Program-made: the position numbers and the translations under genes | The notes under the pieces: model-generated | Databases searched by the model: none | Seen by the model: the letters and a program-made list of their open reading frames with translations, nothing else | What the model was told of the DNA's origin: nothing | Origin: a virus | UHGV virus genome: UHGV-0212970 | Reading direction: 5' to 3' (one strand) | DNA: 53,962 nt | In this document: positions 9,013 to 53,962 of the stretch, piece by piece | Layout of the letters: each line of letters opens with the position of its first letter | How positions within the stretch are numbered: position 1 is the stretch's first letter

Positions 9013-9024
9013 TATACAAAATGG
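9013..9024 (-). promoter_or_regulatory. Copy of the recurrent 12-nt element (TATACAAAATGG) abutting the -35 of the rightward early promoter
   Basis: Exact motif copy; its reverse complement reads CCATTTTGTATACT (TG plus -10-like hexamer) facing the repressor 3' end. Confidence 0.35.
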
Positions 9025-22911: not shown

Positions 22912-22955
22912 TATACAAAATGGCATTGTTTCGGCGGTGCCATTTTGTTATAAAG
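22912..22955. promoter_or_regulatory. Inverted pair of the 12-nt element (TATACAAAATGG - 16 nt - CCATTTTGTTATAAA)
   Basis: Right arm gives TG-n-TATAAA extended -10 about 35 nt upstream of the 22990 gene. Confidence 0.35.
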
Positions 22956-25666: not shown

Positions 25667-26158
25667 ATGATTAGCCAATCGCTGAAAAATAAGATTATTG
25701 CGGCGGCGGCTGGTGGGGCGATCGCTATTGCGGGGATGATGATAAAAGATCTTGAAGGCGTTGAGTATAAGCCGTACAGAGATGTCATCGGTGTTTACAC
25801 GATATGTTATGGACACGTCGGAAAAGACATCATGCTTGGGAAGACTTACACGCAATCAGAATGCGATGCTTTGTTAAATAAAGATCTACACAAGACCGCG
25901 AAAGCGATTGACCCATATATCAAAGTCGAAATATCAGATTTTACCCGCGCTGCACTTTATTCCTTCGCCTATAACGTAGGCGCTACCAACTTCAAAACAT
26001 CAACCTTATTAAAGCTACTCAATGACGGCAAGAAATCAGAAGCGTGCGCACAGCTTAAACGCTGGATTTATGCTGGCGGTAAGCAGTGGCAAGGGTTAAT
26101 TAACCGCCGTGATGTTGAATATGCCGTTTGCGAATGGGGTGAGACATGGACAAGGTGA
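25667..26158 (+). CDS. SAR endolysin (GH24 phage lysozyme)
   Basis: About 163 aa; Gly/Ala-rich SAR segment [14 protein letters not shown] then [24 protein letters not shown], closely resembling phage 21 R as I recall it. Confidence 0.9.
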
Positions 26159-26616
26159 AGACGCTAATTATCGCCGTTGTTGTTTGCATTATTGCCGGGC
26201 TGACCGCCGTAACGTGTTATTACCAGAGTGAGGCGGCAAGGTTACAGGAAGAAGTCACGGTGACGCAAGGTGCACTAAAGACAGCAAGTAACACTATTCA
26301 GCAGATGAAGGATCGGAACGCCGAACTGTCAAAACTTGATAAGAGGTATCACGATGAGATTAAAGCTATCAGATCTGACATTGCCGATCTGCGTGCTGGC
26401 ATTGATAGCGGTGCTATCCGGTTGCATGTCAACGCCGAGCCAGTGCGATTGCTCGACAATACCGGAACCGCCAGCCGCATTGATGGAGCCACCTGTAGAC
26501 TCACTCCAGACGCTGAATCGGCTTATCTATCCCTCAGAGAACAACTAAAAGAGAAAGATGCGAAGATCGCCGGACTTCAGAGCTATATCAAAACGCAGTG
26601 CTTACGCAAAAAATAA
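26146..26616 (+). CDS. Rz: Rz-like i-spanin
   Basis: 156 aa; N-terminal TM anchor, coiled-coil periplasmic domain, overlaps endolysin stop. Confidence 0.8.
26354..26548 (+). CDS. Rz1: Rz1-like o-spanin (lipoprotein embedded in +1 frame of Rz)
   Basis: Signal peptide with lipobox LSGC, Pro-rich mature part; SD AAGAGG 7 nt upstream of ATG 26354. Confidence 0.75.
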   Translation: MRLKLSDLTLPICVLALIAVLSGCMSTPSQCDCSTIPEPPAALMEPPVDSLQTLNRLIYPSENN

Positions 26617-38217: not shown

Positions 38218-38271
38218 TAATCAATATTAACAATCGGGGCCATCTGGCCCCTTTCTTTTAAGGTGACAGCT

Positions 38272-38949
38272 ATGATCCATGTTCGAACGGGACAATTTGC
38301 GGCGGTGGTAGACGGCAGGCGGTACGTGTTTAATCCCTGCTTCGCTGCAATGGCTAAAATCGGCAGTGACAGCGAACTGGTCGAATACTTCGCAACCATA
38401 CACGGTGGCAAATATCCATCACGATTGCCAGCGGATCCAGACCTTCGCAATCGCATTATGGCGCGGTGTTATGGTGAAATGGTGCAAACGTCCATGCACA
38501 TCCTGAAATGTTGCTCAGACGACGAAATAGGCACGCTATTAGGCGAATGTAGGTTTACTCCTTCCGGCAAGTTACGACTAAGACCAGGACTGATGCCTAC
38601 CAGTGACGTTATCACGCTGGCGCAGCATTGCATGTACCACGGCTTAATCGGTGACGGGCCGGAAGAAGACGCCGGAGAGATCCGGGAAGGGGAATATAAG
38701 CCTACTTTTAACGTGCTGGAATTCGTTTATTCTGCCGTTGCTCACCTGGGCTTGTCAGAATCGGAAGCATGGAATATGACAATGACCGGATATAGGGCCG
38801 CTGTACGCGCTAAAACGCCGCCAGACGAAAGAAACGAGAGAAGCAAGCCAAACATTCACATAAATAAACGTGCTTATGACGAGCAAATGGAGGCCGCTAA
38901 AAAGGCACTAGAAAGAATGAAAAATCGTGAGCAAGAAAAAGCCCGGTAG
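38272..38949 (+). CDS. Putative tail assembly chaperone
   Basis: ORF track 38263..38949; between major tail and tape measure, the position of lambda G/GT; acidic/basic C-terminus. Confidence 0.4.
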   Translation: MIHVRTGQFAAVVDGRRYVFNPCFAAMAKIGSDSELVEYFATIHGGKYPSRLPADPDLRNRIMARCYGEMVQTSMHILKCCSDDEIGTLLGECRFTPSGKLRLRPGLMPTSDVITLAQHCMYHGLIGDGPEEDAGEIREGEYKPTFNVLEFVYSAVAHLGLSESEAWNMTMTGYRAAVRAKTPPDERNERSKPNIHINKRAYDEQMEAAKKALERMKNREQEKAR

Positions 38950-38963
38950 ATCCGGGCGTTTTG
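38941..38963 (+). terminator. Terminator-like hairpin after tail chaperone gene
   Basis: GCCCGG-TAGA-TCCGGGC followed by GTTTT. Confidence 0.5.
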
Positions 38964-39338
38964 CTAATTGAAATCTTTAATTGCTGTACCTGGTGAACTG
39001 TGTGTGATTGTATTGTATACAGACTTTGCCTTACTGCGATCTTTCCATTCTTTTAGGATGCAGTTATCAAACTTTGCGATAACCCTTGAAGGGGATAATT
39101 CTTCAACATCCATGTAAGTAAATCCTATCGTGCTGGTTACTGAATACCATACGTGATAACTATAATTACCGTCATGCTCGATTCTTTGTGGTTCCCCCAT
39201 TATTTTATTCACTTGCTCACAAGTCATTCCAACTTGCAATTTTTTATCAGCTAACTTAACGAAATCAGTTGATCTTGCGCACCCTGTAAGAGCTAAAGCC
39301 ATAACACCAATGAGAGCCGCTTTGATTATGTTTTTCAT
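38964..39338 (-). CDS. Lipoprotein (moron, 124 aa)
   Basis: Signal peptide with lipobox LTGC; opposite strand inside tail cluster; AT-rich. Confidence 0.6.
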   Translation of the reverse strand: MKNIIKAALIGVMALALTGCARSTDFVKLADKKLQVGMTCEQVNKIMGEPQRIEHDGNYSYHVWYSVTSTIGFTYMDVEELSPSRVIAKFDNCILKEWKDRSKAKSVYNTITHSSPGTAIKDFN

Positions 39339-39348
39339 GATTTACCCC

Positions 39349-40008
39349 TTAATTCCAGTTGCAAGCGTTTTTCACTTTGTCGATGTGGTTATAAAGACCA
39401 TCAATGTTAAACACTGCTTTCTCAATGTCGCCAGCTTCCGGCACTACTTCAATGATGAATTGTTTTTCGTTAACCATTTTTTTAATCATTGGGATGGCTT
39501 TTTTGCCATCCCATAATCCAAGAGCTTTATAATTAGTTGACCGCCCCCACTCAGTAGCTACAGCTTTGTGAACGCCGATCCGGTAGTTAATATAAGTAGT
39601 GTCCCCGGCGTCAGTTACATGGTGTGACCATGCTACGAACATTTTTGTTTTATTACCCTGGCAAGCGATTGTTAATACCGGTTTATTCTTATCCTGTGCC
39701 TTCAGTGTCGGGAAAGCATCAAGACTTCCGCTGAATTGTTCTGCTTTCACAAAAAGGAATACGTTTTTTGCGTCCTGCATATCATCTTTTCTTTCAACTA
39801 CAAGCCACTGTTTACCAGCATTTTCTTTTTCTAACTGTGCATCGTATGCGGCTTGTTTTGCTTGTTGTTCTGCAAGCCATTTAGCATTTTTCTCTGCTAA
39901 TGCTTGTTGTTCTTGATTGGTCACTATAGGCGCTTTTTCATTATCCTCATTGCAACCAACCAGACCCAATACCGCCGCAATCATTGCCACTTTTGCTAAC
40001 CGTTTCAT
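39349..40008 (-). CDS. Lipoprotein (moron, 219 aa)
   Basis: Signal peptide with lipobox LVGC; Gln/Ala-rich coiled segment then globular domain. Confidence 0.6.
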   Translation of the reverse strand: MKRLAKVAMIAAVLGLVGCNEDNEKAPIVTNQEQQALAEKNAKWLAEQQAKQAAYDAQLEKENAGKQWLVVERKDDMQDAKNVFLFVKAEQFSGSLDAFPTLKAQDKNKPVLTIACQGNKTKMFVAWSHHVTDAGDTTYINYRIGVHKAVATEWGRSTNYKALGLWDGKKAIPMIKKMVNEKQFIIEVVPEAGDIEKAVFNIDGLYNHIDKVKNACNWN

Positions 40009-40055
40009 AACCCACCACGCTAACTTGATTTACTGACCTTTCCCTTTGGCTTACT

Positions 40056-40099
40056 TATACAAAATGGAGTCGTTGAAGTAAAGCCATTTTGTATAAAAT
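40056..40099. promoter_or_regulatory. Divergent promoter-like pair built from inverted copies of the 12-nt element
   Basis: TATACAAAATGG - 16 nt - CCATTTTGTATAAAAT; each arm gives TG plus TATAA(G/A) -10-like box, facing the lipoprotein genes leftward and tape measure rightward. Confidence 0.4.
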
Positions 40100-40135: not shown

Positions 40136-42481
40136 ATGGCTACCAGTGTAGGTACAATTTATTACGAAGTTGATGCAAAAACTGGTCAACTTCTCGTTGC
40201 ACAACGACAGGCAGACCAGGCCTTTGACCGTATAGAGCGCGGCGCAAAACAGGCTGACCGCCAGGTAAACACCCTGAAAACATCCATCAAAGCACTGACC
40301 AGGGTTATCCATTTGCTAATTGCTGCCGAGGCTGTGCGCCAATTTATGGATATGGCGGAGCAAGCAAAAATGCTTCGCGTAAAAATCAAAATGCTTACGG
40401 GCGATGCGGAGTCCGCCGGACGGGTTTTCGACGGCCTGAAAGCAATATCCAGGGAAACGGGGCAAAGCCTGAAGGATACTGGCGAGCTATGGCAAGGTCT
40501 TGCCATCTCACTGAAGAACACGTCAGCTACGGAAGGGCAATTACTTAACCTGGTTGGCACTATTCAGAAAATGGGGGCGTTAGGCGGCGCATCAGCGGAA
40601 CAGATGTCTAACTCTATGCGCCAGTTCCGCCAGTCTATAGACGGCGGCGTGCTGCGTGCTGAAGAATTTAACAGCCTACTTGAAAACACCCCGACCATCG
40701 TACAGACAATGGCCCGTCAGATGGGGTTATCTATGGGCCAGTTCCGCGCCGAAATGCTGGACGGCAAGATCACGGCAGAAAGGATGGTTAACGCAATCCA
40801 GGCGGCTACGCAGGAAACAAACGAGCAGTTTGCTCAGTTGCCGCGCACATCCGGCATGGCTATCAATGAGCTTAAAGTCGAAATCATGGGTCTTGTTGAA
40901 CAGCTTGATGATCTTTTCGGCGTATCAGATGGCGTAGTCTCAGCTATCGACTTAATCACAAAAGGCGTTAAGGGGTTAGGTGAGGGCGCTAAATTCGCTA
41001 AAACCTGCTTCGATACACTCAAAACGGCTGGTGGCGAATTCATCGACATGTTTGATGATGTGGCTGTGAAGGCTGGCGAGGTGGCAGAGAAGATCATCGC
41101 AATGGTGACGCCAATCAAGGCACTTATGGACGCCTACAAATGGATGAAGGAGGTTGTAGATAAGCGCAAGGAAGAACTAAATAGCAACAATGAGAAGAAA
41201 TTCGGCCCTACAGTCGGTAAAGTCATGACTTTTGCAAACGACATTAAAAACGCGACTGCCGCTTATGATGAGTTTATGCAGAAACAGGCAGAAGCCAACG
41301 ACGGCAAGATCACCGGATTCGACAAGCCAGTTGATAAGCCTAAAAAGGGTAAGAAGACTGGCAGCAAGAAAAGCAAAGAGGATACGCTTGGTGACAAGGG
41401 TATAAGCGTTTCTGACCAGTACAATAAAGACGCCGCCGCCATGCGCAAAGCGTTAGAGAACGGCAAGGCCATTGATGCTGCATTCGCCCAGGGTAAAATC
41501 ACCCTCCTTGAGTACCGCGCCGCGCAAAAAGGGATAGGTAAGGAACTGAAGGAAGAATTAGCCCAAATTCCGGTAGATGAATTGCGTGATAAATGGGCGC
41601 AAATAGTAAGCCCGATGAATCAGCTTAAAGGCGAGGTTGACCCTATTCAGCAGGTACAAAATGAATGGGCCGTCCGTAAGCAAATGCTTATCGACCTGGG
41701 CGCTACCGAAGCGCAACAGAAACAGGCATTGTTAGCCTATGAGCAACAGATCCGCGATCTGAAATGGGAGCAATGGCAGGCGCAAAGCCAGACAAACGGC
41801 CTGATCGGTGATTGCGTTAATGGCCTTAAAGGTGGCATGAGCAATGCGCTTGTCGGCCTGCTTAACGGTACTCAATCATTGAGCGATGTTTTTGCTAACT
41901 TAGGGAGCAATATACTAGGGAATATTGGCAACAGACTTTCTGATATAGCAGCCGACTGGATAGCAGATCAGATCATGATGGAAACACAAAGCAAGGCAAC
42001 TCAAGCAAGTACAACGGCAAGCGCGGTTGCCGCTCAGGAAAGCATCGCGGCGGCGGCGGCCCCGGCGGCGGCGGCAACGGCTGCATCAACTGGCGGTAGC
42101 TGGGCGGCGGCTGGTTCGGCTGCGCTCACTGCGATCATGTCGCTGGCTACGTCAATTTTCGGCGGCGGTCGCTTTAATGGTGGTAGCGTCATTGGTGGCA
42201 ATATGTACCGCGTAGGGGAACACAACAGGCCGGAGCTATTCCAGACGTCTAACGGCAACCAATATATGATCCCAGGCGAGAACGGCAGGGTTATTCCTGG
42301 TCGTGATATTGGCGGCGGTGGCGGTTTTAGTATGCCTGTCAGTATCAGTATTCAAACCACAAACGGATTTAGCGAAGAAGACAGCCGCAGACTTGAATCA
42401 ACAATGGAACGTGTAGCAATGAAGATGATAACAAGGGAATCGCAAAGACCTGGCGGGATGTTGCAACCGCGCCGCAAATAA
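40136..42481 (+). CDS. Tail tape measure protein
   Basis: 781 aa; long helical protein with Ala/Gly-rich TM-like region near C-terminus; lambda H-like position. Confidence 0.85.
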   Translation: MATSVGTIYYEVDAKTGQLLVAQRQADQAFDRIERGAKQADRQVNTLKTSIKALTRVIHLLIAAEAVRQFMDMAEQAKMLRVKIKMLTGDAESAGRVFDGLKAISRETGQSLKDTGELWQGLAISLKNTSATEGQLLNLVGTIQKMGALGGASAEQMSNSMRQFRQSIDGGVLRAEEFNSLLENTPTIVQTMARQMGLSMGQFRAEMLDGKITAERMVNAIQAATQETNEQFAQLPRTSGMAINELKVEIMGLVEQLDDLFGVSDGVVSAIDLITKGVKGLGEGAKFAKTCFDTLKTAGGEFIDMFDDVAVKAGEVAEKIIAMVTPIKALMDAYKWMKEVVDKRKEELNSNNEKKFGPTVGKVMTFANDIKNATAAYDEFMQKQAEANDGKITGFDKPVDKPKKGKKTGSKKSKEDTLGDKGISVSDQYNKDAAAMRKALENGKAIDAAFAQGKITLLEYRAAQKGIGKELKEELAQIPVDELRDKWAQIVSPMNQLKGEVDPIQQVQNEWAVRKQMLIDLGATEAQQKQALLAYEQQIRDLKWEQWQAQSQTNGLIGDCVNGLKGGMSNALVGLLNGTQSLSDVFANLGSNILGNIGNRLSDIAADWIADQIMMETQSKATQASTTASAVAAQESIAAAAAPAAAATAASTGGSWAAAGSAALTAIMSLATSIFGGGRFNGGSVIGGNMYRVGEHNRPELFQTSNGNQYMIPGENGRVIPGRDIGGGGGFSMPVSISIQTTNGFSEEDSRRLESTMERVAMKMITRESQRPGGMLQPRRK

Positions 42482-42486
42482 CACTA

Positions 42487-42512
42487 AGGCCGCTATAAGC
42501 GGCCTTTATTTT
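42487..42512 (+). terminator. Rho-independent terminator after tape measure gene
   Basis: AGGCCGC-TATA-AGCGGCCT followed by TTATTTT. Confidence 0.65.
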
Positions 42513-42798
42513 ACATGGTGAGAATATAAATCAAACAGCACAGGAATACAGGTGCGGCGAAGTCGCAAACGCTAGCCATATTCCATGCTTTAGGTAATAA
42601 TCCGCCATACCACGGCATTCTTTCCCGTTTTCCACCGCAAAATTCCGCTATGTAACGATATTCAGCCTGCGTGTGTTCGCGTGCAAAAAAGAATGTACAT
42701 CCAATCAGGCCGCCAGTGAGATAATCACCAGTAAGCAGGCCGATAACAACCTGCATAGCCGCCGCAGCCAGTGCGTGACCAATGACGGTTAAATCCAT
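42511..42798 (-). CDS. Small membrane protein (moron)
   Basis: 95 aa with 3 hydrophobic segments; opposite strand. Confidence 0.45.
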   Translation of the reverse strand: MDLTVIGHALAAAAMQVVIGLLTGDYLTGGLIGCTFFFAREHTQAEYRYIAEFCGGKRERMPWYGGLLPKAWNMASVCDFAAPVFLCCLIYILTM

Positions 42799-42800
42799 TG

Positions 42801-42986
42801 TTAATCCTCCTGATCGTTCTCAAATGTGCCATCTATAAATTTTTGAAGCCCGGCGATAAGTTGCGTCGCCTGCGATTTGTCAATTACGAGGATGTCAGTC
42901 CCCATGAGTTCGGTTATCCATAGCCGACCATCCTCATCAAGATCTAACCTAACTCCGTAACATAACTCTGTTTCGTCAATAATCAT
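42801..42986 (-). CDS. Hypothetical acidic protein (moron)
   Basis: 61 aa; SD GGAGG. Confidence 0.4.
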   Translation of the reverse strand: MIIDETELCYGVRLDLDEDGRLWITELMGTDILVIDKSQATQLIAGLQKFIDGTFENDQED

Positions 42987-43095
42987 TTTTCCTCCTATAA
43001 TCTTCCGTTACGTGCGACGTAACCACTGCCGAACATCACCAACCAAATATTCCAGATCTCCCGCCAGGTGAATTTATCGTCCTCCATGTCCCACC

Positions 43096-43350
43096 TCACT
43101 TATGCACCCCTTTGACTCCACAGTGCCTGTTATATTCCAGATGATCGATAATTAACCAGACTTTTAGGTCTTCGCTAAACAGCCTCCAGTCAGGGTTGAT
43201 GTCGAATTTAAAGCCATAACCATCACGTAACTTTTTGGGGCGCGCCTCTTTCTTCAAAAATGCTTTAAGCAGTTCCTTCCCTTTCTTGATAGTCCTGTCT
43301 TGTGCGTTTTTCTGTACTTTCAGGTTTTTATCAATCGCTACCAGTTTCAT
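43096..43350 (-). CDS. Hypothetical basic protein (moron; possible toxin-like partner of upstream small gene)
   Basis: 84 aa, Lys-rich; SD GGGGTGAG. Confidence 0.45.
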   Translation of the reverse strand: MKLVAIDKNLKVQKNAQDRTIKKGKELLKAFLKKEARPKKLRDGYGFKFDINPDWRLFSEDLKVWLIIDHLEYNRHCGVKGVHK

Positions 43351-43367
43351 AACTCACCCCATCATCC

Positions 43368-43523
43368 TTAGTTGAGTGCCTTCAGGAAGAAATCACGGTA
43401 TTCATCTTCTTTTGCATTCATCATGAATTGAGCGTATTTGAATGCGTCGTCGAACCCCTTAACGATTGCTATTTCCACTTGTTCGAATGCGTTGTTCAGC
43501 ATTACCACTACATAGCGTTTCAT
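43368..43523 (-). CDS. Small protein (moron, about 51 aa)
   Basis: ORF track 43368..43598; internal ATG at 43523 has strong SD GGAGGCC. Confidence 0.4.
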   Translation of the reverse strand: MKRYVVVMLNNAFEQVEIAIVKGFDDAFKYAQFMMNAKEDEYRDFFLKALN

Positions 43524-43594
43524 TTTTGGCCTCCTTCGTTGGTACTGCTTTTCTTCTTGCTTTCTATATACATCTTGTTGCGTACTATGTGAAG

Positions 43595-43675
43595 CCATTT
43601 TGTAAACTAGCTATAATCATTGTGATTAAGATCTCATTTTTCGCGTAGAGGCGCGTAAAGATATATACAAAATGT
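43595..43675. promoter_or_regulatory. Divergent promoter-like pair of the 12-nt element (CCATTTTGTAAA ... about 56 nt ... ATATACAAAATG)
   Basis: Left copy faces rightward with downstream TATAAT; right copy on minus strand reads CCATTTTGTATATAT facing the moron genes. Confidence 0.4.
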
Positions 43676-44337: not shown

Positions 44338-44586
44338 TCATAACGCCCCCTTCAAATATGTCAATCCCTTATCAGTGACGAATGAATGATTAACCTGGTT
44401 TTCATCCGTCATGATGATGAATAACTTTTCCTGTAGGTATTTCGCTTTCGGGTACAGCGTTAAACAGACCTGGTACAGTATCCCGCGCTCAATCAGCAAA
44501 TCAATAAATTCGTGCTCATGATAACCGATGAGGCGGGCGGCCTGTTTCAGCGTGTACACATAATCGCCGTGATTGCGCCGCCCCAT
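44338..44586 (-). CDS. Hypothetical protein (moron)
   Basis: 82-aa ORF. Confidence 0.45.
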   Translation of the reverse strand: MGRRNHGDYVYTLKQAARLIGYHEHEFIDLLIERGILYQVCLTLYPKAKYLQEKLFIIMTDENQVNHSFVTDKGLTYLKGAL

Positions 44587-44595
44587 GTTGCCGCC

Positions 44596-44943
44596 TTATT
44601 TATCGAATGCGGCCAGGTTATCTATGCAGAAGTCTTTCGCAGCTTTTTCGTATTCGCGTTTTGCTTCTGGATTGTCAGCCGGGAAGCCTTTTGCGTGTAT
44701 TTCACCAGGGCAAGCCTGATCCATAGAATCAGCAAATTCAACATTGACGTTAAAGTTAATATCTTTCGGATTCATGTTTTCCACCTCATCAATTATCTGC
44801 ACCGGATTAGCAGCATATTTCACTGGATGGCCTAAACTACATTCAAGAATCCTTCCTTCTTCCAAAGCTGCCTCTTCGCTATCAAATAATCCGAAACACT
44901 CCTTGCAACCACTTAACCACACATCAAGACTATATTTTTGCAT
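44596..44943 (-). CDS. Hypothetical protein (moron)
   Basis: 115-aa ORF. Confidence 0.5.
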   Translation of the reverse strand: MQKYSLDVWLSGCKECFGLFDSEEAALEEGRILECSLGHPVKYAANPVQIIDEVENMNPKDINFNVNVEFADSMDQACPGEIHAKGFPADNPEAKREYEKAAKDFCIDNLAAFDK

Positions 44944-44955
44944 TTCGTTAACCTC

Positions 44956-45111
44956 TCATTTGACAAGTTCGATCCTGTACCCCAAAACGCGTTCGTCTTC
45001 AGCAAGTAAAAGCGCGTCAGTAAGTGCCTCGCCTTCATCCTTATACAGAGCTACAGTCATTTTTCTGCCATCAGTCAGGAATACCGTCAACCTCCACACC
45101 TTATCAGCCAT
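44956..45111 (-). CDS. Small protein (moron, about 51 aa)
   Basis: ORF track 44956..45186; internal ATG at 45111 with SD GGAGGTG. Confidence 0.35.
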   Translation of the reverse strand: MADKVWRLTVFLTDGRKMTVALYKDEGEALTDALLLAEDERVLGYRIELVK

Positions 45112-45125
45112 CTCACACCTCCGCG

Positions 45126-45202
45126 CCATTTTGTTAACTGCGCTTCCGTTTGAGTAAAATATACATATTGTATAAACCGCGATCAATCCATTTTGGTATG
45201 AT
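45126..45202 (+). promoter_or_regulatory. Two direct copies of the 12-nt element with -10-like boxes upstream of gene L
   Basis: CCATTTTGTTAA at 45126; TTGAGT-N15-TATAAA at 45150-45176; CCATTTTGGTATGAT at 45188. Confidence 0.3.
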
Positions 45203-51620: not shown

Positions 51621-51626
51621 CACCAA

Positions 51627-51648
51627 CCCCGCTACGGCGGGGTTTTTA
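51627..51648 (+). terminator. Rho-independent terminator after gene J
   Basis: CCCCGC-TACG-GCGGGG followed by TTTTT. Confidence 0.8.
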
Positions 51649-51731
51649 ATACATATCGTAAACACAAGTTCGTCCGCGCAATGACAAGACGTTAAAATAG
51701 TATGGTTAATTAACATAATGGAGTCATTGCG

Positions 51732-53528
51732 ATGATTTACACAACAGGCACGATAGCCGTTAGCGGAAAAACAGTTACCGGAACGGGGACTGAATTCAAC
51801 GCCGCATTATCTCTGATCAGAGTGGGTTGCACTCTTATTGCTATTAGCGATCCTGTGCAGATTTTTTCAATCACAGAGGTAAAAAGCGCAACAAGTTTGT
51901 CGGTAACTCCGGCGGCAAGTCCGGCTATTCCGGCTGGAACTAAATTTAGCATCCTGCTTTCAGATTCGATCTCTGTGGATGGTCTTGCTCAGGATGTTGC
52001 CGAAACACTGCGTTACTATCAGGGCAAGGAATCAGAAATAGCTGACGCCGTCGAATTTTTCAGCGACAACAAAGATGTGATTTCAGCCTCAAAATTAGCG
52101 TCACAATCAGCTACCACTGCAACTAACGCAGCAAAAACAGCGACAACCGCAGCTGATTCAGCAAAGAAATACAGAGATGAGGCACACGAATACGCCAATC
52201 AGACTGCGCAGCCTTACGCATATGTTTTGCAGCCACTGCCGGACGTATGGATACCGTTTAATGATTCACTTGATATGATCACTGGATACGGCCCTGGCAC
52301 TAAAAAAGTAACCATTGATGAGGAAGAAAAAACAATACCATCAGATAAGGTTGTTTCTTTCTCACGCGCAAGCACGGCTACTTACATTAATAAATCAGGT
52401 GTTTTAACTGTGGCTGGTATTAATGAGCCACGTTTTGAACGCGAAGGATTGCTGATTGAGGGGACGCGTACAAACCTGTTAATAAACAGTATAGACCCTT
52501 CAAAGTGGAACAAATCATCAAATATGATTTTAAATACATCAGGAGTGGATAATTTTGGCTTCACTTACGGAAAATTCACATTAAAAGAAACAATGGTAGG
52601 GCAAACTTCAGCGATTAACATAGTAACCGTTAGTGGCAATAAAGGTTTTGATGTAACAGGCGGTGAAAAGTATGTAACAGCATCATGCAGGGTACAAAGT
52701 GGCACTCCAAACATAAGATGCTGCTTGAGATTTGAGGAATATGGTGAATCTGGCTACACTTTTCTTGGTGACGCATACGTGAATTTGACAGATTTATCTA
52801 TTAGTAAGACAGGCGTTGCATCAGATCGTATTACTGCAAAAGCTGTTAAAGATGAAGCAAGTGAATGGATCTTCTTTGAAGCAACAATTAAGGCACTTGA
52901 TACAGAAAATATGATCGGTGCAATGGTGCAATATGCTCCACCTGTGGGTGGAAGCACTGGTGTTGACGATTATATATATGTTTCAACCCCTCAAGTAGAA
53001 GGTGGCGCGTGTGCTTCTTCGTTTATTATCACTGCGGAAACAGCAACAACGCGCGCAAGTGACATGGTATCGGTCACGATGAAAAATAACCTTTATGGTG
53101 CACCATTTACTATTCTTTGCGAGGCGCATAAAAATTGGTATAAAACGCCAAATGCAGCAACGCGTGTTTTTGACACAGGAGGTCATCAGAGTGGCGCGGC
53201 TATGATCCTTGCTTTTGGGTCGTCGAAAGAATACGACGGATTTCCTTATTGCGATATTGGTGAGTCAAACAGGCGCGTTAACGAAAACGCATCACTACAA
53301 AAAATGATTATCGGTATGAGGGTTAAAAGCACCTATGATACATGTTGTGTCAGTAATGGACGCATATCAAGCGAAGCAAAAACAACATGGAGATATATAT
53401 CTAACGCAGCAATATTCCGTTTCGGCGGTCAAACAACAGCAGGGGAGCGACATCTTTTTGGACATATTAGAAATTTCAGGGTATGGCACAAAGCATTAAC
53501 CGATGCGCAAATGAGCGAGATTGTTTAA
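51732..53528 (+). CDS. Tail fibre protein
   Basis: 598 aa; N-terminus typical of side tail fibres; AT-rich C-terminal half. Confidence 0.7.
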   Translation: MIYTTGTIAVSGKTVTGTGTEFNAALSLIRVGCTLIAISDPVQIFSITEVKSATSLSVTPAASPAIPAGTKFSILLSDSISVDGLAQDVAETLRYYQGKESEIADAVEFFSDNKDVISASKLASQSATTATNAAKTATTAADSAKKYRDEAHEYANQTAQPYAYVLQPLPDVWIPFNDSLDMITGYGPGTKKVTIDEEEKTIPSDKVVSFSRASTATYINKSGVLTVAGINEPRFEREGLLIEGTRTNLLINSIDPSKWNKSSNMILNTSGVDNFGFTYGKFTLKETMVGQTSAINIVTVSGNKGFDVTGGEKYVTASCRVQSGTPNIRCCLRFEEYGESGYTFLGDAYVNLTDLSISKTGVASDRITAKAVKDEASEWIFFEATIKALDTENMIGAMVQYAPPVGGSTGVDDYIYVSTPQVEGGACASSFIITAETATTRASDMVSVTMKNNLYGAPFTILCEAHKNWYKTPNAATRVFDTGGHQSGAAMILAFGSSKEYDGFPYCDIGESNRRVNENASLQKMIIGMRVKSTYDTCCVSNGRISSEAKTTWRYISNAAIFRFGGQTTAGERHLFGHIRNFRVWHKALTDAQMSEIV

Positions 53529-53538
53529 GGTGGTGAAT

Positions 53539-53805
53539 ATGAAAGATGTTAGCTTGCAATTTACTGATAAACAGCAATACAACGACATTGTGATTAATAG
53601 CGGATGGCTGGATGCCAACTGGTCTACCGTATTTGTCGATGATATAGGTTTTGTTCTTGTATTCGATGATCCAGAAAGCGAGACGCCTGTACTGATTGAG
53701 AAAAAATGCTATTATGTCAACATGCGCATAACTGGTGACGATGTTGATTTGTCGCCGCTGGAAAAATTCATCGTTCCAGATCCAGGCGTCCGCGTGTGGG
53801 CTTGA
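53539..53805 (+). CDS. Hypothetical protein (possible tail fibre assembly/accessory)
   Basis: ORF track 53521..53805; ATG 53539 after SD AAGGTGGTG; last gene before terminator. Confidence 0.35.
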   Translation: MKDVSLQFTDKQQYNDIVINSGWLDANWSTVFVDDIGFVLVFDDPESETPVLIEKKCYYVNMRITGDDVDLSPLEKFIVPDPGVRVWA

Positions 53806-53849
53806 TGGTGCGATAGTAACAGCATGGTGATGTTGAAGACATCGCCGCG

Positions 53850-53878
53850 AAACGAGGCTAACGCCTCGTTTCTTTTTG
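53850..53878 (+). terminator. Rho-independent terminator at end of late operon
   Basis: AAACGAGGC-TAAC-GCCTCGTTT followed by CTTTTTG. Confidence 0.75.
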
Positions 53879-53962
53879 TGTACCAAATTGTGACCAAATA
53901 TCAAAAATCAAAAACAAAAATAATGTAATGTGCTGTTTTATAAATGATTATTCGTTGCGCTA

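Follow-up and report, generated by a model that had tools for sequence, protein, structure and literature searches.

The virus genome UHGV-0212970, whose 53,962 nucleotides form the window analysed here, carries two minus-strand genes, orfA and orfB, between a DUF6246 gene and the tape measure gene of its tail cluster (Table 1). An earlier note on this DNA had described them as a two-lipoprotein moron in AT-richer DNA, and both genes were confirmed in place with canonical lipoboxes. The 1186-nt slot that separates the flanking genes has a GC (guanine plus cytosine) content of 0.395 against a window mean of 0.457, which puts it among the lowest 0.7% of 1186-nt segments, so the claim about base composition held as well. 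A search of the slot against Rfam gave chance-level matches only, with no known RNA.

Both products show the charged n-region, the hydrophobic h-region and the lipobox ([LVI][ASTVI][GAS]C) by which lipoproteins were recognised. The orfA signal is MKNIIKAALIGVMALALTG (MKNIIK-AALIGVMALA-LTG) followed by Cys20, with Ala at position +2, and that of orfB is MKRLAKVAMIAAVLGLVG (MKRLAK-VAMIAAVLG-LVG) followed by Cys19, with Asn at +2. The Gly-Cys of the lipobox is invariant across all homologues of orfA and of orfB, and only three open reading frames (ORFs) with a lipobox were found in the window, the third being the Rz1-like o-spanin at 26354-26548. Since the +2 residues are Ala and Asn, with no Asp, the +2 sorting rule predicts that both proteins sit anchored in the outer membrane's inner leaflet and face the periplasm. 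The ratio of nonsynonymous to synonymous substitution rates (dN/dS) against diverged homologues is 0.06-0.16 for orfA and 0.18-0.26 for orfB; being below 0.3, these values indicate that both genes are real and under purifying selection.

Given their short spacer with its Shine-Dalgarno sequence, orfB and orfA are probably co-transcribed. The terminator that had been placed at 38941 was recovered as a hairpin that scored on both strands, its predicted folding energies being -14.8 and -17.7 kcal/mol, at z scores of about -3.5 and -4.4. Its T-tail is better on the minus strand (tail TTTTTCTT), where the hairpin closes the cargo operon, while on the plus strand it trails the DUF6246 gene; an ARNold terminator is annotated at the same site in phages mEp013 and mEp021. 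On the other side of the operon, the region of the candidate promoter is kept across slot alleles. The divergent pair of 12-nt elements reported at 40056 was found as well, its copies at 40056 and 40084 lying within a 13-nt inverted repeat that is perfect, is placed ~ 40 nt upstream of the tape measure ATG and as RNA would form a hairpin of about -13 kcal/mol (z about -4). However, since the stretch from this repeat through to the tape measure ATG is conserved in nearly all 41 distinct slot alleles irrespective of their cargo, the repeat is an element of the phage backbone and not of this particular cargo.

Table 1. Features of the orfA-orfB slot and its flanks, in window coordinates
Feature	Coordinates	Strand	Basis
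DUF6246/phrog_791 gene (left flank)	38263-38949	+	Pfam PF19759, 190.7 bits; phrog_791
Bidirectional intrinsic terminator hairpin, GCCCGG-N5-CCGGGC	38941-38957	both	scan and RNA folding
orfA, 124-amino-acid lipoprotein, DUF6246-proximal cargo	38964-39338	-	ORF and lipobox
Intercistronic spacer, 10 nt, AGGGG Shine-Dalgarno	39339-39348	-	sequence reading
orfB, 219-amino-acid lipoprotein, tape-measure-proximal cargo	39349-40008	-	ORF and lipobox
Candidate sigma-70 promoter, -35 TTTACT, 17-nt spacer, -10 TATAAG	-35 at 40082-40077; -10 at 40059-40054	-	own sequence reading
Perfect 13-nt inverted repeat, TTATACAAAATGG-N16-CCATTTTGTATAA	40055-40096	.	repeat search
Tape measure gene (right flank)	40136-42481	+	Pfam TMP_3, 168 bits; phrog_1538

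By its nucleotide matches (mEp013, mEp554, mEp010, mEp044, mEp021, mEp515 and MagusPhagus) the phage belongs to the mEpimmI/mEp021 group. The lambdoid affiliation supposed at first was therefore dropped, as the mEpimmI phages are Nus-dependent, non-lambdoid temperate coliphages (PMC11893012). Prophages of the group are present in ~ 35 of 5,426 complete E. coli genomes. The exact orfA-orfB cassette occurs in 15 of the 5,426 genomes, chromosomal every time, and its carriers include human clinical isolates, for example one from cerebrospinal fluid (CSF) and a Shiga toxin-producing E. coli (STEC). The left flanking gene sits at the usual position of the tail assembly chaperone; the chaperone name that the earlier note gave it rests on that position, its match being to DUF6246/phrog_791.

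A hypervariable slot at the DUF6246/tape measure junction

The locus is, with high confidence, one allele of a hypervariable two-position moron slot at the DUF6246/tape measure junction of the mEpimmI coliphages. The slot was surveyed at 76 IMG/VR loci encoding DUF6246, together with phage records, and its ORFs were clustered; a DUF6246 scan of a genome collection holding one genome per species yielded just two Castellaniella loci, both distant. The two flanking genes adjoin each other, 0-90 nt apart, in 14 relatives whose DUF6246 identity is 29-41%. Among members of the E. coli group, with DUF6246 identities of at least 70%, the gap measures 643-1275 nt, has a GC content of 0.37-0.43 and holds at least eight unrelated minus-strand cargo families. 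The description as a moron-type insertion was thus borne out by the opposite strand, the low GC content, the terminator of its own, a plausible promoter of its own and the abutting flanks of the distant relatives.

The VasI-like lipoproteins of the orfB cluster were found at 19 loci and the BamE-like lipoproteins of the orfA cluster at 15. The other cargos are c1 (a Sec-signal protein of 138 amino acids (aa) of the mEp021 gp63 type, 17 loci), c7 (a membrane protein of ~ 100 aa, 10 loci), c8 (a 129-aa Sec-signal protein, 7 loci), c11 (106 aa, without signal, 7 loci), c40 (a 165-aa Sec-signal protein, 1 locus) and c47 (a 245-aa lipoprotein, 1 locus). Most slot cargos have transmembrane helices or an export signal of the Sec or lipoprotein kind. 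Searches of c1, c7, c8, c11, c40 and c47 against Pfam and PHROGs gave no annotation, and hence no functional clue by association.

The position next to the tape measure gene is taken by orfB, c1, c8 or c40, and the one next to the DUF6246 gene by orfA, c11 or c7, or is left empty. The architectures observed include orfA with orfB (10), c11 with orfB (7), orfB alone (2), orfA with c8 (2), and, once each, orfA with c1, orfA alone and, in mEp013, orfA with a 59-aa membrane peptide. Since orfA and orfB assort independently, they are separable modules and not a dedicated pair, and an obligate two-gene orfA-orfB system was rejected on the same ground. Furthermore, orfB and c8 are 77% identical in the 5' untranslated region and 78% in the signal codons as compared with 44% in the remainder, and orfA and c47 are 87% identical in the signal codons and 40% in the remainder. 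To judge from these identities, cargo exchange retains the export signal and replaces the mature domain.

A separate observation was made in a distant lineage with ~ 40% DUF6246 identity (loci L060-L062 and L068 from IMG/VR), where plus-strand lipoprotein or Sec-signal ORFs of clusters c18, c24 and c54 lie at the junction. It seems that the junction was colonised independently by exported cargo in that lineage.

Relatives of orfB and orfA

The earlier note had recognised neither sequence and had proposed structure prediction and remote-homology searches, which, once run, place orfB with VasI and IalB and orfA with BamE, OsmE and BLIP. Public pipelines do in fact name both proteins: the exact orfB sequence occurs on 93 public contigs, labelled 'VasI family/TagO', and the exact orfA sequence on 119, with the IMG label 'BamE'. 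No experimental work on orfA or orfB was found in the literature, and sequence searches of the PDB gave no match for either.

orfB belongs to the VasI/TagO family (PF11319) as a divergent lipoprotein whose β-sandwich is IalB-like, and is not an orthologue of TagO from a type VI secretion system (T6SS). Against Pfam VasI it scores 57.9 bits (threshold 26.5), residues 55-218 corresponding to positions 25-184 of the 184 in the profile, and PF11319 is precomputed for all 11 full-length orfB homologues. On the NCBIfam VasI/TagO equivalog TIGR03360 it stays at 45.8 bits, below the cut-off of 124.2, as compared with 257.4 bits for ECs_0222 and 75.9 bits for a P2-like phage protein. The predicted layout is a helix of ~ 33 residues (31-63) followed by a VasI/IalB-like β-sandwich (~ 66-218), and a Cys116/Cys216 pair is conserved. 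A profile search with the orfB alignment in a 5.8-billion-protein index brought no additional members, the clade being isolated at word-index level.

With the VasI/TagO proteins of the T6SS (PF11319, TIGR03360; ECs_0222 of E. coli O157 Sakai, VCA0118 of V. cholerae) orfB has the C-terminal β-sandwich in common. ECs_0222 is 32% identical to orfB over the final 110 aa and is likewise targeted to the periplasm, and the Cys pair (IAC... / ...ACNW) is common to orfB, ECs_0222 and the homologue from a P2 phage. The N-terminal RLxCYD motif, a criterion that we drew from two comparators and not a curated definition, occurs as ERLDCYDH in ECs_0222 and in three copies in the P2-like protein, but it is absent from orfB, which has the lipobox and the helix instead. 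Moreover, ECs_0222 is a genuine E. coli T6SS-2 TagO that adjoins ClpV/TssH, whereas the contexts of orfB are all phage tail clusters with no T6SS neighbours. The invasion-associated protein IalB of Bartonella (PDB 3dtd) has a fold like that of orfB, but with 8% sequence identity and no functional link.

VasI-like proteins outside the T6SS were found as recurrent cargo in unrelated temperate phages, namely P2-like phages (E. coli, Klebsiella, Citrobacter) and those of Pasteurella, Brucella and Labrenzia. In the P2-like Escherichia phage 500465-2, gp38 ('TagO', 297 aa) is an exported VasI-domain accessory protein encoded in the cargo region between ogr/hok and int, and is 28% identical to orfB residues 27-218 (E 2e-19). 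It differs from orfB in its Sec signal, its RLxCYD repeats, its zinc-ribbon partner with two transmembrane helices, and in phage family and slot. Among VasI-fold proteins, a function outside the T6SS has been tested for one only, SDIC4B of Serratia/Enterobacteriaceae defence islands, which gives 10-200-fold phage protection alone, its small partner being dispensable (bioRxiv 10.1101/2024.01.28.577318); SDIC4 is now a DefenseFinder subtype (PMC13639185). Like orfB, SDIC4B has a VasI-type fold outside a T6SS cluster, in mobile or variable DNA and in a two-gene locus, and its activity without the partner parallels the independent assortment of orfB and orfA. SDIC4 differs in being BrxR-associated and in lying in chromosomal islands, not in a phage tail slot. 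As a side observation, the two-gene unit of such P2-like phages (L090 2858-4088 of Escherichia phage 500465-2; also L091 and L092), which pairs a zinc-ribbon protein of 110 aa and two transmembrane helices with a Sec-exported VasI-like protein of 297 aa bearing three RLxCYD repeats, resembles the reported SDIC4 in host distribution (E. coli, Klebsiella, Citrobacter).

As for orfA, it is a divergent BamE/OsmE/BLIP-fold lipoprotein, its predicted order of α-α-β-β-β being common to BamE, OsmE and BLIP. In sequence it lies below the Pfam and NCBIfam cut-offs: it scores 20.2 bits on Pfam PF04355 BamE/SmpA_OmlA (threshold 23.2), with residues 32-51 matched only, and its matches to BamE, DUF7738 and OsmE are all sub-threshold, that to OsmE having 16 bits against a cut-off of 65. 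Nothing indicates membership of the BAM complex. The family is tiny and phage-restricted, with 21 relatives at E ≤ 1e-3 in a profile search of 1.84 billion representatives, and the PF04355 threshold is passed by 8 of the 10 remote relatives from the orfA profile that were tested. In BLIP and in BtiO, a T6SS immunity protein, a fold of the BamE type serves as inhibitor or decoy (PMC12541434).

Candidate roles of the slot cargo

We favour, with a probability of roughly 0.45, the reading that orfA and orfB are prophage-expressed periplasmic binding proteins that would act in inter-phage or inter-bacterial conflict. The orfB-orfA operon would be transcribed leftwards, against late transcription, from a weak sigma-70-like promoter inside the backbone repeat to the bidirectional terminator, an arrangement that would permit expression from the prophage. 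Both folds are periplasmic and non-enzymatic: orfB would carry its VasI/IalB-type β-sandwich on a helical stalk, ~ 5 nm off the membrane, and orfA, which is small, would be a binding module of the BamE/OsmE/BLIP type. Working in the periplasm of the lysogen as factors that bind other proteins, both could alter the response of the envelope to outside attack: orfB might interfere with infection by other phages independently of their receptor, at or after the envelope-crossing step, and orfA might attach to a periplasmic or outer-membrane partner and serve, like BLIP and BtiO, as inhibitor or decoy. A role in conflict is favoured because of the SDIC4B precedent, the recurrence of VasI-like phage cargo and the inhibitor or decoy use of the fold in BLIP and BtiO. 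In the broader sense, a lysogenic-conversion or defence role is plausible.

Several points weigh against this reading. The function assignment for both proteins rests on analogy, and the folds are generic periplasmic scaffolds, which are also found in housekeeping (BamE, OsmE) and virulence-associated (IalB) proteins. The AlphaFold2 (AF2) models are moderate, with a predicted local distance difference test (pLDDT) score of 72-73, and orfA was confident in one of five models only. SDIC4B is compared with orfB by its reported fold and not by sequence, and according to its authors it has no BLAST similarity to the VasI of the T6SS (bioRxiv 10.1101/2024.01.28.577318). PADLOC v2.0 assigned no defence family to orfA, to orfB or to the neighbouring minus-strand ORFs, except for a ParE-like protein. 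Read from its letters, the cargo promoter (TTTACT-17-TATAAG) would be a weak candidate, and it was not called by a consensus scan, which demands a T at position 6 of the -10 element. As the inverted repeat around this candidate also lies ahead of the late tape measure gene, the cargo might be co-regulated with the lytic genes and not be expressed in the lysogen. Finally, the surveyed loci include many near-identical prophages, so that the counts are not independent.

A more specific role, of the Cor/Llp type, had been put forward in the earlier note; here one or both lipoproteins would bind and inactivate the outer-membrane receptor of their own phage from the periplasmic face. Lipoprotein-mediated exclusion has been demonstrated within the mEpimmI group, in which Lpp021 (gp81) and Lpp010 (gp116) exclude phages with a matching receptor (PMC11893012), and orfA and orfB are themselves predicted outer-membrane lipoproteins encoded in the tail region. 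In this they are like Cor (phi80, N15, HK022), Llp (T5), Lpp021 and Lpp010, classical morons in or near tail genes. These proteins differ, however, in lying downstream of J, in having ~ 60-85 aa, in showing no sequence similarity to orfA or orfB and in co-varying with J. Indeed, gp81 of mEp021 is on the minus strand downstream of J, which is another locus than the slot. The comparison with J was made at 54 loci anchored on the J N-terminus, with 10-kb flanks spanning the slot, the J C-terminus and the post-J region. Post-J lipoproteins (70-85 aa), which served as a positive control, track the J C-terminal type (J1-P0 at 9 of 9 loci, J2-P1 at 5 of 7, J4-P2 at 4 of 5), whereas the slot cargo shows no co-variation with J type. 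orfB spans five types (J0, J1, J2, J5 and J7), orfA at least three (J0, J1 and J5) plus mEp013, which uses LamB (PMC11893012), and c1 is found with J0-J3; moreover, orfB coexists with a post-J Lpp in J1-P0 and J2-P1. Neither orfA nor orfB falls into any of the post-J lipoprotein clusters, and they resemble those proteins neither in sequence nor in fold. The window phage (J5) and all 13 J0 relatives are without a post-J lipoprotein, and orfB is present at 10 of the 13 J0 loci, so that the slot cargo could substitute for it; this association, however, is confounded by near-identical prophages. With the independent assortment of the two genes added, receptor-specific self-exclusion of the Cor/Llp/Lpp type is not supported for orfA and orfB, and we consider it improbable. 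The position of the slot, together with the precedent of Ltp, an exclusion lipoprotein aimed at the tape measure protein, prompted the same comparison with full-length tape measure types, and again no co-variation was seen: T0 occurs with every cargo, orfA with four types and orfB with two. An exclusion of the Ltp type was rejected on this evidence, while a heterotypic action is still compatible with it.

Apart from this, J (type J5) is followed in the window (51621-53962) by ORFs on the plus strand (598 aa and 94 aa) that gave no match in Pfam. The haemolysis-inducing Ipe of mEp021 is described as a single ORF whose four nested starts yield products of 83, 82, 77 and 72 aa (PMC6379469). A mapping of Ipe to the slot was rejected, as its size and four starts fit the post-J Lpp021 gene; Ipe is probably the same gene as Lpp021/gp81 (72 aa, cloned as 'short lpp021'; L011 12677-12895).

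The remaining explanations look beyond exclusion by receptor. T6SS immunity proteins are typically periplasmic lipoproteins, and orfB is in the Pfam VasI family, both of which would suit a scheme in which orfA is an orphan periplasmic immunity protein or decoy and orfB, as a VasI paralogue, disturbs the T6SS-2 envelope complex of the host or takes a place in it. This we hold to be unlikely, given the distance of orfB from the VasI equivalog cut-off and its lack of the N-terminal motif of T6SS TagO, the absence of any T6SS gene or effector near orfA and orfB, a match of orfA to BtiO that is no better than those to OsmE, BLIP and BamE, and the independent assortment of the two genes; in addition, the role of VasI/TagO within the T6SS itself is not established (PMC13584744). 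Host-fitness or virulence conversion outside conflict would take the form of an envelope stress or osmotic function (OsmE-like), serum resistance (Bor-like) or adhesion and invasion (IalB-like). The carriage of the cassette by clinical isolates (CSF, STEC) speaks for it, as does the precedent of lambda Bor, a classical prophage lipoprotein with a host-conversion (serum resistance) role. Furthermore, the lipoprotein-sized Ipe of mEp021 causes vesiculation and haemolysis on overexpression (PMC6379469). Nevertheless, the match of orfA to OsmE is far below its cut-off, periplasm-facing lipoproteins are by default not surface exposed, the cassette is carried by so few complete genomes, and the extreme turnover of slot cargo looks more like that of conflict genes than of niche-adaptation genes; we therefore give such conversion a small chance. 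Least probable is that the proteins serve the lytic cycle or the virion of the phage itself, for example as late-expressed periplasmic helpers of tail, tape measure or lysis. The genes do lie inside the tail cluster beside the tape measure gene, the conserved inverted repeat is common to the tape measure upstream region and a site downstream of the Q region, and the stalk of orfB faintly matched a PHROG of Rz-like spanins (E 0.088). Yet orfA and orfB are absent in most relatives, which have unrelated cargo or nothing in their place, they lie on the strand opposite to late transcription and have their own terminator, and an Rz/Rz1-type spanin pair is already present in the window at 26146-26616. 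Moreover, the mEp021 slot cargo gp63 is annotated as hypothetical, while several other genes in the mEp021 record are labelled virion structural.

Returning to the reading of orfA and orfB as periplasmic conflict proteins, the locus as it stands is a typical prophage moron, an ordinary kind of add-on. Lipoprotein morons in tail regions are classical, both families are auto-annotated and VasI-fold defence has been reported. What is new is modest: in the tail slot of a siphophage, a VasI variant that is lipid-anchored and independent of the T6SS; a BamE-like family of very few members; and a slot in which mature domains are exchanged while the promoter region and the export signal ahead of them are conserved. 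If orfB protects lysogens against other phages, VasI-fold defence (SDIC4) would be extended to prophage-borne, lipid-anchored forms, and orfB would offer a small, tractable model for the role of the VasI/TagO fold. A bolder version, in which the DUF6246/tape measure junction is a dedicated hotspot for envelope-acting cargo that retains promoter and export signal and replaces the mature domain only, and in which orfB stands for a class of VasI-fold proteins, tethered to the outer membrane, that block the periplasmic entry of foreign phage genomes independently of receptor or tamper with T6SS envelope complexes, seems doubtful; if true, it would tie VasI/TagO to a general periplasmic guarding against trans-envelope machines. 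The slot, whose at least eight unannotated cargos sit behind a common promoter region and in several cases have the export signal in common as well, may help in mining gut E. coli phages for conflict proteins that act in the periplasm.

A phage-wide motif and further cargo blocks

The 12-mer of the inverted repeat is over-represented in the window, with 22 matches at up to two mismatches against 7.9 ± 2.8 expected. The phage-wide motif T(A/T)TACAAAATGG has six exact and six one-mismatch copies, almost all of them intergenic and ahead of operons. Its sites (4603, 8171, 9013, 17072/17139, 22912, 40056/40084 and 43595/43664) are those at the LexA-family repressor gene, at the early-right genes, downstream of the Q region and at both cargo slots of the tail region. 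The sites at 22912 and 40056 share one inverted-repeat layout (16-nt spacer, ~ 80 nt ahead of a start codon), and a good -35/-10 pair directly follows the motif at 9013 and 22912. The motif is not discussed in PMC11893012.

A second minus-strand block, whose contents vary among relatives, lies at 42511-43598 between the tape measure and gpM-like minor tail genes. Its ORFs encode a phrog_1443 protein (95 aa), a 61-aa protein, the ParE-like protein mentioned above, with a toxin domain (43096-43350, PF24732 39.8 bits) and a weak PADLOC match to PDC-M02A, and a 76-aa protein; the block may be a toxin-antitoxin or defence module. A third one, at 44338-45186, is found between the gpM-like and gpL-like tail genes and encodes a protein with an ANT/KilAC antirepressor domain (44338-44586). 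The tail cluster is thus interrupted by at least three opposite-strand cargo slots.

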